Shown piece by piece: positions 52,011-57,507 of a DNA stretch of 64,000 nucleotides. Each line of letters starts with the position of its first letter. The first letter of the stretch is position 1. Both the position numbers and the translations under genes were made by a program. The notes beneath the pieces are model-generated. The model had not been told where the DNA came from. It did no database searches and saw only the letters and a program-made list of their open reading frames with translations. Source of the stretch: an uncultured Clostridia bacterium (GTDB taxonomy: Bacteria > Bacillota > Clostridia > TANB77 > CAG-508); the NCBI GenBank assembly GCA_947584805.1, contig CANPWU010000004.1:13098-77097 (forward strand), read 5' to 3'.

Positions 52011-52356
52011 AATGATACAAGAATTTTATAAAAAAATAAATGGAAATTATGAAGTAGCAATTTCAAGAATGCAAAATGATGAAAGAATAAAAAAATATCT
52101 TAACTTTTTTCTAATGGATGAGTCATACAAAAGCCTAGAAGAAGGTATGAATTCTAATGATTGTGAAATGGCATTTAGAGGTGCACATACTTTAAAAGGA
52201 GTTTGCCAAAATATGGCATTTACATATCTTAGTACAATTGTAGAACAAATAACAGAAGAATTAAGAGCAAAAGATATTGAAAAAGCAAAATTAACTTTTA
52301 AGAAAGTAAAAGAAGAATATGAAAAAGTAATTGAAGAAATTCATAAAATTATGTAA
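52011..52356 (+). CDS. Hpt (histidine phosphotransfer) domain protein. The likely start is MIQEFYKK.
   Basis: 'RGAHTLKGVCQNM' contains the Hpt His motif (HxxKG). 115-134 aa. Confidence 0.55.
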
Positions 52357-52405
52357 AAATCAATTTGATAATAAGTATAAAAAATAAAAATGAAGGGAAG
52401 TTTTT

Positions 52406-53494
52406 ATGGAAGAAAGAGACACAATACTAATTGTAGATGACGTTATGATAAATAGAGAATTATTAAAAGACATATTTGAAAAAGGAGAATATGAACTATT
52501 AGAAGCAAAAGATGGAGAAGAAGCGATTGAAATACTAGAAGAAAACAAAGAAAAAATAGTTTTAATATTTTTGGATTTAGTAATGCCAAAGAAAAACGGC
52601 TTAGAAGTACTCCACCATATGTCGCTTAACAATATGATAAATACAATACCAGTTATTATGATAACAGGGGAAGCAACAGTTGAAAGTGATGTAAAAGCAT
52701 ATGAACTTGGAGCAGCAGATATTATATATAAGCCATTTGAACCTGCTGTTGTAACACGTAGAGCAAAAAACATTATAGAACTATATAAGCACAGAACTTT
52801 TATGGAAAAAGAGTTAGAAGCCAGAAACCAAGAATTACTTGAAAGCAAAAAACAAATAGAAAATAGTAATACTTTTTTAATTAATGCATTAAGTTCAGTT
52901 GTAGAGTTTAGAAGCTTAGAATCAGGAGAACATATTCAAAGAGTAAAGAAATTTACAGAAATTATGCTAAGACATTGGAGAGCATTATATGGGGAAAAAC
53001 AATTTTCAAATGAACAAATTGAACTAATAGTTAATGCATCTGCACTTCATGATATTGGAAAAATAGCAATACCAGATAATATACTTTTAAAATCAGGAAG
53101 GTTAACAGATGAAGAATATGCAGAAATGAAAAAGCATACTATTTATGGCTGTCAAATGTTAGAAAAGTTCAAACAAGAAGAAAATGAGTTTTATCGCTAT
53201 TGTTATGATATTTGTCGTTATCATCATGAAAGATATGATGGAAGAGGATATCCAGACGGACTAGTAGGTGATGCTATTCCTGTGTGGGCGCAAATTGTAG
53301 CTGTAGTAGATGTTTATGATGCACTTGTAAGTAAAAGAGTATATAAAGCTTCTTTCACAATACAAGAAACATATCGTATGATAAATGATGGTGAATGTGG
53401 AATATTTTCACCAAAGTTATTAAAATGTTTTAATGATGCAAAAGAAGATATTATAGCAAACACCTCAAAAGAACAAATGGGGGAGGAGAATTAA
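52406..53494 (+). CDS. Response regulator with a receiver domain fused to an HD-GYP c-di-GMP phosphodiesterase domain
   Basis: REC domain (D in LIFLDLVMP, K in IYKP). HD-GYP domain with HDIGK...HHERYDGRGYP. Confidence 0.75.
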   Translation: MEERDTILIVDDVMINRELLKDIFEKGEYELLEAKDGEEAIEILEENKEKIVLIFLDLVMPKKNGLEVLHHMSLNNMINTIPVIMITGEATVESDVKAYELGAADIIYKPFEPAVVTRRAKNIIELYKHRTFMEKELEARNQELLESKKQIENSNTFLINALSSVVEFRSLESGEHIQRVKKFTEIMLRHWRALYGEKQFSNEQIELIVNASALHDIGKIAIPDNILLKSGRLTDEEYAEMKKHTIYGCQMLEKFKQEENEFYRYCYDICRYHHERYDGRGYPDGLVGDAIPVWAQIVAVVDVYDALVSKRVYKASFTIQETYRMINDGECGIFSPKLLKCFNDAKEDIIANTSKEQMGEEN

Positions 53495-56125: not shown

Positions 56126-56151
56126 AATATATTATAATAGGAGAAAATAAA

Positions 56152-57507
56152 ATGAAGAAAAAAACAATTATTATTTTAGGAGCTTTAATAATAACATTAG
56201 TAGTAGTCTATTTGTTTTTAAATAGAAAAAATATTTTAATAAACGAAAATGCAAATGAAAAAACAGAAGTAACATTAACAATAAAAACTCCAGTATTACA
56301 AATGACATCTTATAAAGATGAAGAAATTAGTGATACATATACTTTTATGAAAAAATTAGCTACTGCTTTTGAAAGCCAGTATAAAGATGCAAATGTTAAG
56401 ATCAATGTTGTGCAATTTGAAAAAGCAAATGAGGATGAACAGATAATAGGTTGTTTTGATACAGAAGATGCAGCAGATATTCTATATGAAGAATATTTTA
56501 ATATGTCAACATATGTACATACAGGTAAGGTAGTTCCTCTAGATGATATAATTTCACAAGAAATAAGAAATGATATAAGCTCATCTTATTGGGATATTAG
56601 CAAAATAAATGAAAAAACATATATGATGCCATTTTTAGGAATGCAAAACACCTTATGCTATAACAAAGACTTATTTAAACAAGTGGGACTTGAAAAATAT
56701 ACAACAGATAAAGACATTGTTCAAAATTGGTCATTAAAAGATTGGGAAATAATACTTAAAACATTACAAAAAAAACTTCCAGAGAATATATATACAATGC
56801 TTATGTATGGAAAAAATGAATCGGGAGACACACATATTATAACACTTCTTCGTAGTAGAGGTAGTACATTTTTTGATGAAACTGGAAGAGTTAAATTAAC
56901 TACAAAAGAAGGAATTGAAGCCGTACAATGGCTAATGGATTGTAATAAAAAAGGATACTTTCCTGCAAATGCAGAAAATCTCGAAATAAATAATTGTTAT
57001 GATTTATTTGTAAATGGACAACTTGCTATTTATATAAATAATGCAGTATTAGATGCAACAATGAAAAAGACAAATATTAATTATGGAAACGTGAATTTCC
57101 CTTCAATAGATGGAAAAGGTTTCACGACTAATTTTCTTACAGGATTTGAAGTGTTTGATAATGGAGATGAGAAAAGATTAAAGGTAGCAAAAGAATTCAT
57201 AAAATTTGTATATGAAAATGATGAGTGGCTAGAATATTCAGCTGGTGCAATCCCATGTAGCAATAAAGTAGCAACTAAATATGAAGATGCATTAAAGGAC
57301 AAACAAAAATATATAGATAACAACCAAACTGGATGGAATTTTACAGGAAATGCACCTACTTGGAGGAAAGTAAGAAACGTATTTTACAAAGATATTAAAG
57401 AATTACTATATGGTGAAAAAACGGCAGAAGAAATTGCAAAGCAAATAGAAGAAGATTGTAATAAGGCTATAAATGAAGGCTATGCAAATAGCAAATTGCA
57501 TGAATAA
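56152..57507 (+). CDS. Extracellular solute-binding protein (ABC-type, family 1, sugar-like). It has an N-terminal TM/signal anchor.
   Basis: 451 aa, of SBP-like length. No cognate permease or ATPase genes are adjacent. Confidence 0.6.
   Translation: MKKKTIIILGALIITLVVVYLFLNRKNILINENANEKTEVTLTIKTPVLQMTSYKDEEISDTYTFMKKLATAFESQYKDANVKINVVQFEKANEDEQIIGCFDTEDAADILYEEYFNMSTYVHTGKVVPLDDIISQEIRNDISSSYWDISKINEKTYMMPFLGMQNTLCYNKDLFKQVGLEKYTTDKDIVQNWSLKDWEIILKTLQKKLPENIYTMLMYGKNESGDTHIITLLRSRGSTFFDETGRVKLTTKEGIEAVQWLMDCNKKGYFPANAENLEINNCYDLFVNGQLAIYINNAVLDATMKKTNINYGNVNFPSIDGKGFTTNFLTGFEVFDNGDEKRLKVAKEFIKFVYENDEWLEYSAGAIPCSNKVATKYEDALKDKQKYIDNNQTGWNFTGNAPTWRKVRNVFYKDIKELLYGEKTAEEIAKQIEEDCNKAINEGYANSKLHE

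Follow-up and report, generated by a model that had tools for sequence, protein, structure and literature searches.

The coat gene cotJC is split in two by a 7,574-bp insertion in a 64-kb stretch of ~28% G+C clostridial DNA (the window, 64,000 nucleotides of contig CANPWU010000004.1, from an uncultured Clostridia bacterium), which raises the question of what this insertion is, what it carries, and whether it is removed again when the cell sporulates. Our answer, which as a whole we hold with moderate confidence, is that it is a minimal integrative element, made up of attachment (att) arms, a recombination cassette, and a single host operon, that carries a signalling system as cargo and would be excised during development. 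Domains were called with Pfam and phage families with PHROGs, folds were compared with an AlphaFold2 (AF2) model and Foldseek, and the ratio of nonsynonymous to synonymous substitution rates (dN/dS) was computed for the cargo genes, the recombinase, and the reconstituted cotJC against related loci, which are given L numbers below.

The insertion occupies positions 51893-59466 and interrupts the coding sequence of cotJC, a sporulation gene, after codon 65, downstream of cotJA and cotJB. In Bacillus subtilis, the cotJ genes are expressed in the mother cell. The interrupted locus is laid out as follows:

51027 to 51374, + strand: cotJA (Pfam CotJA, 9.4e-12)
51371 to 51697, + strand: cotJB (Pfam CotJB, 7.9e-27)
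51697 to 51894, + strand: cotJC 5' fragment (Pfam Mn_catalase, profile positions 1-66)
51889 to 51892, + strand: left copy of the GAAT core, which is common to attL and attR and contains the crossover somewhere within it
51893 to 51943, + strand: P' arm (GAGATCCAAAATGTTATCAATAAG...), an imperfect inverted repeat of the P arm
59430 to 59466, + strand: P arm (TTTTTTTGATAAGGTTTTGGTTATTAC) with the right copy of the GAAT core (59463-59466)
59467 to 59975, + strand: cotJC 3' fragment (Pfam Mn_catalase), starting LAHLEMVG...

The 5' fragment comprises 65 codons with the C terminus ...DIGTEE, and its TGA stop arises at the junction. Excising 51893-59466 in silico yields a 705-nt in-frame gene for a 234-amino acid (aa) CotJC, which reads ...DIGTEELAHLEMVG... 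at the junction, runs through the conserved TEELAHLE metal-site motif, and agrees with the intact genes of L035 and L103. With a slash marking each junction, attL is GGTACAGAAGAAT/GAGATCC, attR is TTATTACGAAT/TAGCACACC, the predicted attB is ...GATATTGGTACAGAAGAAT/TAGCACACCTTGAAATGG..., and the predicted attP is ...TTGATAAGGTTTTGGTTATTACGAAT/GAGATCCAAAATGTTATCAA.... On the element side, the arms GAGATCCAAAATGTTATCA... and ...TGATAAGGTTTTGGTTATTAC form an imperfect inverted repeat, as expected of the halves of a serine-integrase attP. The P arm is conserved beside related recombinases in L004-L009. In L103, from a sister taxon with 75-82% nucleotide identity, cotJC is uninterrupted at exactly the same site and the upstream order matches that of the window (type IV pilus genes, dapA, pyk, rpmF, cotJA, cotJB). 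Window positions 51890 and 59469 correspond to L103 positions 8194 and 8199, and because L103 is contiguous across the site, it serves as an empty attB that fixes the boundaries of the element.

The genes that would carry out integration and excision lie at the right end of the element:

57618 to 57755, + strand: 45-aa open reading frame (ORF; MQVVKEYVKDRTKIRIHDDYI...), candidate recombination directionality factor (RDF)
57824 to 59422, + strand: large serine recombinase, 532 aa (Pfam Resolvase PF00239, Recombinase PF07508, and Zn_ribbon_recom PF13408)

The recombinase gene ends 44 bp before the attR core. Its product has every sequence hallmark of a large serine recombinase, namely the catalytic serine (S28 in YLRKSRAD), the Recombinase domain, and the zinc-ribbon domain, and it matches the integrase family PHROG 95 (1e-85). 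An ORF of 44-51 aa with conserved sequence stands immediately upstream of every related recombinase examined. The relatives of the 45-aa ORF are stand-alone proteins, mostly of 45-51 aa and at most 73 aa (12 representative clusters), and the ORF itself has no Pfam or PHROG family and no homology to known RDFs. Its invariable position upstream of the recombinase makes it the obvious RDF candidate, a putative role for which position and co-conservation are the grounds. Relatives of the recombinase number in the thousands, and those sampled at 57-84% identity adjoin cotJC fragments, accompanied by cargo that varies: helix-turn-helix and sigma-like proteins, a Y-family polymerase, and a radical-SAM enzyme in L004-L009, Spo0A_C-like and extracytoplasmic function (ECF) sigma proteins in L096, and large surface proteins in L098. 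Therefore, cotJC is a widely used target of a coherent family of elements with mostly non-phage cargo, and the TEE/LAH codons of the gene are where this recombinase family inserts. Orientation varies within the family: the recombinase proteins of L007 and L096, where they are directed at the cotJC 3' fragment, recur in L008 (11900-12220) and L097 (11600-12650) directed at the 5' fragment, with cotJC'-cotJB-cotJA inverted. In L008, an inverted attL comes after an attP-like P-P' site. A palindromic AT crossover within the GAAT core could permit either orientation or inversions, with misassembly as an alternative.

With a split sporulation gene, in-frame restoration by recombination of attL with attR, and a recombinase beside an att site, the element agrees with sporulation gene-intervening elements in every feature that a sequence can test. 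Like skin in sigK (B. subtilis and Clostridioides difficile), SPbeta in spsM, vfbin, vrin, and gin in gerE, it lies within a mother-cell sporulation gene. It also resembles these elements in having a large serine recombinase at one end with a small ORF adjacent to it (compare SprB, CD1234, and GirX; PMC5595907, PMC5025042, PMC4191935), inverted-repeat att arms around a short core, and the possibility of precise in-frame reconstitution. In gerE of Bacillus cereus, gin is an intervening element that is not of phage type and that has both serine recombinases and an RDF (PMC5595907); the cotJC element likewise has no phage genes. Unlike the elements named above, it has cotJC as its target and a single captured signalling operon as its cargo, and its developmental excision is putative. 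At 7.6 kb it is also smaller than the 14.6-kb C. difficile skin, the 28.6-kb gin, the 48-kb B. subtilis skin, and the SPbeta prophage. A skin-like element interrupting cotJC has been mentioned in passing for Laceyella sacchari (bioRxiv 10.1101/2022.02.25.481979), the sole such mention that we found.

We propose that the recombinase integrated the element at attB in cotJC. If skin, SPbeta, and gin are a guide, growing cells and the forespore would retain the integrated copy. Excision by the recombinase and the 45-aa factor would take place in the mother cell, rebuilding the 234-aa CotJC and releasing a circle into a terminal cell. In the C. difficile skin element, a constitutively expressed large serine recombinase works with a small RDF that is under sigma-E control (PMC5025042), and it is from such systems that we infer excision in the mother cell. 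The most serious rival is that the insertion is static: an ordinary island in a dispensable coat gene, never excised, with cotJC inactivated and the operon fixed in place. We consider this doubtful, but several observations weigh on its side and against excision. Mutants of B. subtilis lacking cotJ still sporulate. Upstream of the 45-aa ORF and the recombinase we could recognize no sporulation promoter; alignment with relatives revealed no convincing sigma-E or sigma-K motif in front of the 45-aa ORF, a region in which the window differs from its relatives, and consensus scans for sigma-70 promoters and terminators were uninformative in this AT-rich DNA, with matches no more numerous than in shuffled sequence. 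The evidence for the 45-aa ORF as an RDF comes down to its position and co-conservation. The sequences searched contained no empty site (the attB excision product) and no attP junction of this strain's element, and the protein collection contained no intact CotJC from the same species, the best intact matches being 84-92% identical and accompanied by the strain's own 164-aa fragment. Related loci have also decayed: L011 has lost most of its recombinase, and L100 has a truncated 'cotJC, which indicates that such elements can become fixed.

Other observations speak against a static island. The recombinase is intact and under purifying selection (dN/dS 0.13-0.15), both att arms are intact, and both halves of cotJC are free of disabling mutations in the window and in L094, as is the 3' fragment in L011. 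The dN/dS of cotJC lies at 0.08-0.13 (0.076 for the reconstituted gene against the intact gene of L103, and 0.127 against the reconstituted gene of L094), which suggests that cotJC is still under constraint and argues in favour of its continued use, although this constraint could predate the insertion. Furthermore, the same cotJC codons have been hit by recombinases that are only 57-84% identical, and intervening elements that can be excised are typically maintained over the long term in this way. We favour excision over a static insertion.

What the element carries is a set of four co-oriented, tightly spaced, and intact ORFs across 52012-57507:

52012 to 52356, + strand: stand-alone Hpt protein, 114 aa (PF01627, 30.9 bits against a cutoff of 24.6)
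52406 to 53494, + strand: REC-HD-GYP response regulator, 362 aa (Pfam Response_reg and HD_5/HD, 1.2e-28 and 1.2e-23)
53498 to 56125, + strand: hybrid histidine kinase, 875 aa (Pfam HisKA, HATPase_c, and two Response_reg domains)
56152 to 57507, + strand: SBP_bac_1 solute-binding protein (SBP), 451 aa (Pfam 8.9e-27)
57534 to 57568, + strand: AT-rich hairpin and T-run, a likely operon terminator, conserved in L011

The hairpin after the SBP gene was missed by a GC-biased terminator scan. An earlier reading of this DNA from its letters alone, which we call the first-pass annotation, had named the same four proteins, and the Pfam searches agree with it, all key residues being present; its span for the genes also holds, except that the Hpt gene begins at 52012 and not at 52011. 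The Hpt protein has H59 in an HTLKG motif, and its homologues are likewise 114 aa long. The regulator has the receiver aspartate D57, HDIGK at 215 (H215-D216), and HHERYDGRGYP at 273-283. In the kinase, the order is transmembrane helix, double-Cache (dCache) domain, transmembrane helix, HisKA (H376), HATPase_c, receiver (D668), and receiver (D805). The transmembrane helices, at ~28-48 and 312-335, bracket an outside domain of ~260 aa, for which Pfam Cache matches were below threshold and a 17-sequence profile of the sensor family gave one weak chemoreceptor match in the PDB. An AF2 model of this domain (17 homologues, pLDDT 83) matches the double-Cache domains of Tlp3, PctA, Mlp24, and mmHK1S-Z3 (Foldseek E values of 1e-11 to 1e-9), so that the sensor region is predicted to have a dCache fold, in line with the Cache-like sensor of ~260 aa proposed in the first-pass annotation. 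At its N terminus, the SBP carries a hydrophobic anchor but no lipobox cysteine (there is no Cys before residue 101), its nearest solved structures are sugar ABC binding proteins (1e-21), and no ABC permease or ATPase genes are adjacent to it.

The H-box histidine (H376), receiver aspartates (D668 and D805), Hpt histidine (H59), and terminal receiver aspartate (D57) are all present, and the cargo therefore has the residues of a complete His-Asp-His-Asp phosphorelay ending in an HD-GYP domain, as had been claimed. All four genes are intact in every copy, with dN/dS of 0.09-0.27. In vegetative cells, the membrane-anchored, sugar-type SBP would report an extracellular carbohydrate-like ligand to the dCache domain of the kinase, phosphate would pass from H376 to D668 or D805, then to H59 of Hpt and D57 of the regulator, and the activated HD-GYP domain would hydrolyse cyclic di-GMP (c-di-GMP), following the logic of RpfC/RpfG. 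The claim that these genes sit inside the cotJC element is sustained by their position between attL and attR, by the in-frame reconstitution of cotJC, and by the empty site in L103. The further claim that they are not phage genes is also supported: nothing in the element except the integrase looks phage-derived according to PHROGs and Pfam, with no phage family for the Hpt protein and SBP (the cargo proteins tested) or for the 45-aa ORF, the remaining ORFs being two-component proteins, and prophage structural, replication, or lysis genes were not found in the element.

The origin of the cargo is suggested by relatives of its hybrid kinase. The kinase belongs to a large family, and a scan of the genome collection was dominated by generic matches to the kinase core, with full-length relatives at 4 of 80 loci. 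Four loci, from relatives in the rabbit gut, have the Hpt-regulator-kinase-SBP operon in ordinary chromosomal surroundings (the matching block of the window is listed last):

L013 (GCA_947628735.1): kinase 80% identical; rluD, lepB, operon, ECF sigma/anti-sigma pair
L095 (ENA assembly ERZ27249651): kinase 80% identical; surroundings as in L013
L101 (GCA_947626335.1): kinase 81% identical; operon, then site-2 protease (M50), tsaD, tig, clpP, and clpX
L014 (rabbit-gut Clostridia metagenome-assembled genome, MAG): kinase 68% identical; a fourth context
Window, 51944 to 57540, + strand: captured operon block, from a conserved upstream region (TTGACT...TATAAT) to the hairpin after the SBP gene

No recombinase, cotJ gene, or att arm lies within 10 kb of the operon in L013, L095, L101, or L014. 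The first-pass annotation had named a conserved chromosomal locus of this kind, free of recombinase and cotJ, as the finding that would count against it, and that is what L013/L095, L101, and L014 present. Nucleotide homology between the window and these four loci, at 80-82% identity, starts at 51944-51995 and ends at 57508-57537. The chromosomal copies keep the promoter-like segment upstream of Hpt and have no P' arm there, as seen in L013 and L014. Because the homology spans the upstream region to the terminator, the cargo is one captured operon, and these limits together with the integrase-only PHROGs result reduce the element to a recombination cassette plus exactly one operon; what remains outside the operon is the ~50-bp P' arm, the 45-aa ORF, the recombinase, and the P arm. 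The operon is thus a host operon captured from a chromosomal locus of related gut Clostridia and not an invention of the element. The locus L013 was also considered as an element-borne copy, with two-component genes and a 45-aa ORF downstream, and was rejected, since it has no att arm and its 45-aa ORF is unrelated. In L014, the kinase (L014:12891) lacks ~400 bp, corresponding to window 55315-55716, which is the first of the two receiver domains.

The SBP, which had been described as an orphan, is instead a conserved partner of the kinase, because the pairing is kept in distant relatives: the two genes are adjacent in the window, L010-L014, L094, L095, L100, and L101, and also in the distant L015-L017 (44-54% identity). 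Distant pairs at 49-54% identity were found in Oscillospiraceae and Acetatifactor MAGs, so that the pairing persists to ~50% identity. An SBP gene conserved beside a kinase, with no ABC transporter genes, is the genetic signature of an SBP-dependent sensor.

Elements inserted in cotJC carry the same operon in at least three further types of contig, which differ from the window and from one another in architecture and host flanks. Its closest copies (87-93% identity, in L010-L012, L094, and L100) are all linked to cotJC and to this recombinase family. L094 (GCA_947623615.1) reads cotJC', RhuM, cupin, HxlR, operon, 45-aa ORF, recombinase (82% identity), ToxI/ToxN, and 'cotJC; its operon-ORF-recombinase block is 87% identical to the window over 7.5 kb, and its att arms are of a variant type. 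In L100, the operon is followed by an inverted recombinase (57% identity) with a small ORF and then by a truncated 'cotJC. L010-L012 are like L100, with the 57% recombinase mostly deleted, and have in addition a cassette of small ORF and recombinase (83% identity) that ends in an intact P-P' junction, containing the P' arm, directly before Hpt. The operon is best seen as horizontally spread adaptive cargo and not as part of the excision mechanism.

These loci show further features of their own. The P arm, GAAT, and P' arm of L010-L012 (for example L011:3440-3520) lie in the chromosome between the recombinase and Hpt genes, and an internal attP-like junction of this kind implies a tandem or co-integrate array of elements at cotJC. 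The cotJ operon of L094 has two separate insertions: the other one, between cotJB and cotJC' (L094:1934-5779), encodes a 612-aa WG_beta_rep protein and a large serine recombinase that is unrelated to the first (25% identity). In L094 (15450-16070), the interval from the recombinase to attR contains a ToxN toxin gene preceded by ToxI-like tandem RNA repeats, and a remnant of ToxI-like repeats lies 3' of the recombinase in L011 (3320-3460), which indicates that some of these elements carry an abortive-infection module.

The link to c-di-GMP depends on the regulator. Its HD-GYP domain aligns with the c-di-GMP phosphodiesterases PmGH (4mcw, 1e-34) and PA4781 (4r8z, 1e-32) along the whole catalytic domain, with the E..H, HD, H/KKH, HHE..DG.GYP, and DVYD segments in register, and the HD-GYP signature and metal-ligand residues are present. 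From this alignment, the regulator is predicted to be a c-di-GMP-degrading HD-GYP enzyme. A second rival accepts the phosphorelay and holds that the regulator acts on 3'3'-cyclic GMP-AMP (3'3'-cGAMP) or on the linear dinucleotide pGpG, or works through protein-protein contacts. We think this unlikely. HD-GYP enzymes that act on cGAMP do exist, and one of them, the V. cholerae phosphodiesterase V-cGAP3 (5z7c, 3e-22), is the third-best PDB match; the 64-kb window also holds no diguanylate cyclase (GGDEF), EAL motif, or c-di-GMP riboswitch, which counts against a c-di-GMP role. On the other side, the best two matches are both c-di-GMP-active, with every segment conserved, and the REC-HD-GYP arrangement is the architecture of RpfG. 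A PilB-like ATPase is also encoded nearby (43773-45401), ~6 kb upstream, with an MshEN-type N-terminal domain (Pfam 28.4 bits) in which the c-di-GMP-binding motif is partly retained. This ATPase is a possible c-di-GMP effector downstream of the HD-GYP module, the only such hint, and c-di-GMP remains our preferred substrate for the regulator. The PilB-like ATPase is the first of two T2SSE ATPases in a type IV pilus cluster at 41928-47890, which also contains a prepilin peptidase and a T2SSF protein.

That the four genes are not cargo at all, and are cotJ neighbours that seem internal through inversion, a tandem array, or an assembly error, is barely credible: odd arrangements in relatives would speak for it (the attP-like junctions of L010-L012, the L008 and L097 recombinases directed at the 5' fragment, and a mosaic in L003), but L103 is collinear with both flanks and lacks the entire 7,574 bp, the side comprising SBP, small ORF, recombinase, and 'cotJC is the same in three independent metagenome assemblies (98.8-99.96% identity), and the P' arm directly abuts the operon in the window and in L010-L012. 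The L003 locus is the same as the window except for a ~130-bp mosaic patch in 'cotJC (L003:3435-3560; window 59490-59600). This patch matches the truncated cotJC of L100, which comes from the same sample (ERZ27060145; this sample, ERZ27249440, and ERZ27249446 contain the strain of the window), and could be an assembly chimera or a product of gene conversion between cotJC copies. We considered L003 as a second host with an identical element and rejected it, the 130-bp patch matching L100 of the same sample being the sole difference.

As a signalling pathway, the cargo has partial counterparts in well-studied systems. The RpfC/RpfG system of Xanthomonas consists of a hybrid sensor kinase with an Hpt step and a REC-HD-GYP regulator, and its output is hydrolysis of c-di-GMP. 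The cargo pairs the same components, but its Hpt is a separate 114-aa protein, its kinase has two receivers, its input is a dCache domain with a partner SBP in place of a membrane domain sensing the diffusible signal factor, and its host is a Gram-positive anaerobe. A carbohydrate-type SBP gene beside a kinase, with no transporter genes, in a clostridial gut or plant-fibre organism is also found in CuaD-CuaSR of Ruminiclostridium cellulolyticum, where the SBP signals to a histidine kinase and not to a transporter (PMC10384115). In contrast to CuaD-CuaSR, which has a DNA-binding regulator, the cargo acts through a phosphorelay on an HD-GYP protein, and its SBP-kinase contact is putative.

Signalling genes also occur on other mobile elements of B. 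subtilis, where rapI-phrI is carried by ICEBs1 and skin is the defective prophage that carries rapE-phrE. Like such rap-phr cassettes, the operon consists of signalling genes that travel on an element with the same lifestyle and that would be expressed in vegetative cells. The rap-phr cassettes encode a Rap phosphatase and a peptide, whereas the cargo encodes a two-component phosphorelay and a second-messenger enzyme, and a link between this operon and the sporulation decision is conjectural. The premise of the first-pass annotation that the known intervening elements are prophage remnants is incomplete and outdated, because gin is non-phage (PMC5595907) and rapE-phrE resides on a defective prophage of B. 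subtilis (PMC7784978). The arrangement is unusual, as was claimed, without being unprecedented. In the literature searched, we found no two-component or second-messenger operon reported as cargo of an intervening element, and nothing directly comparable. The novelty lies in the combination: the element is minimal in size, targets cotJC in gut Clostridia, and carries one captured operon for a phosphorelay. Its mechanism is a known one.

If excision is confirmed, this would be among the smallest sporulation intervening elements known and a clean example of one pared down to its att arms, the recombinase cassette, and a single operon of host origin; cotJC would join the list of experimentally relevant targets, and these elements would transfer adaptive genes of non-viral origin among gut Clostridia without cost to the spore. 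The pair of recombinase and 45-aa ORF, with a defined attB of ~40-50 bp, is a compact candidate for an integrase-RDF tool, and the operon, leading from SBP to dCache kinase, Hpt, and HD-GYP, represents a widespread, uncharacterised pathway in herbivore-gut Clostridia. The operon might also be more than a neutral passenger: by lowering c-di-GMP when it senses a gut carbohydrate, it could shift its host between attached or pilus-dependent growth and sporulation and in this way tune the excision and transmission of the element. We regard this as a long shot. If true, it would make the operon an equivalent, based on a second messenger, of the rap-phr cassettes that ICEBs1 and other mobile elements of B. 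subtilis carry, and cotJC-intervening elements would be vehicles that spread behaviour-modifying sensory modules among gut Clostridia.

Downstream of the element, the window contains three further features. Directly 3' of 'cotJC lies a gene for a 214-aa membrane-anchored hypothetical protein (60156-60800) with no Pfam family above threshold, which is absent downstream of cotJC in the sister locus L103. A tRNA-Gln (CTG) gene at 60954-61028 is located between this gene and galE, ~1 kb downstream of 'cotJC. The galE gene itself (UDP-glucose 4-epimerase; 61155-62181) is frameshifted near 61800 into ORFs of 222 aa and 101 aa, and the same split was called in the independent assembly L001.

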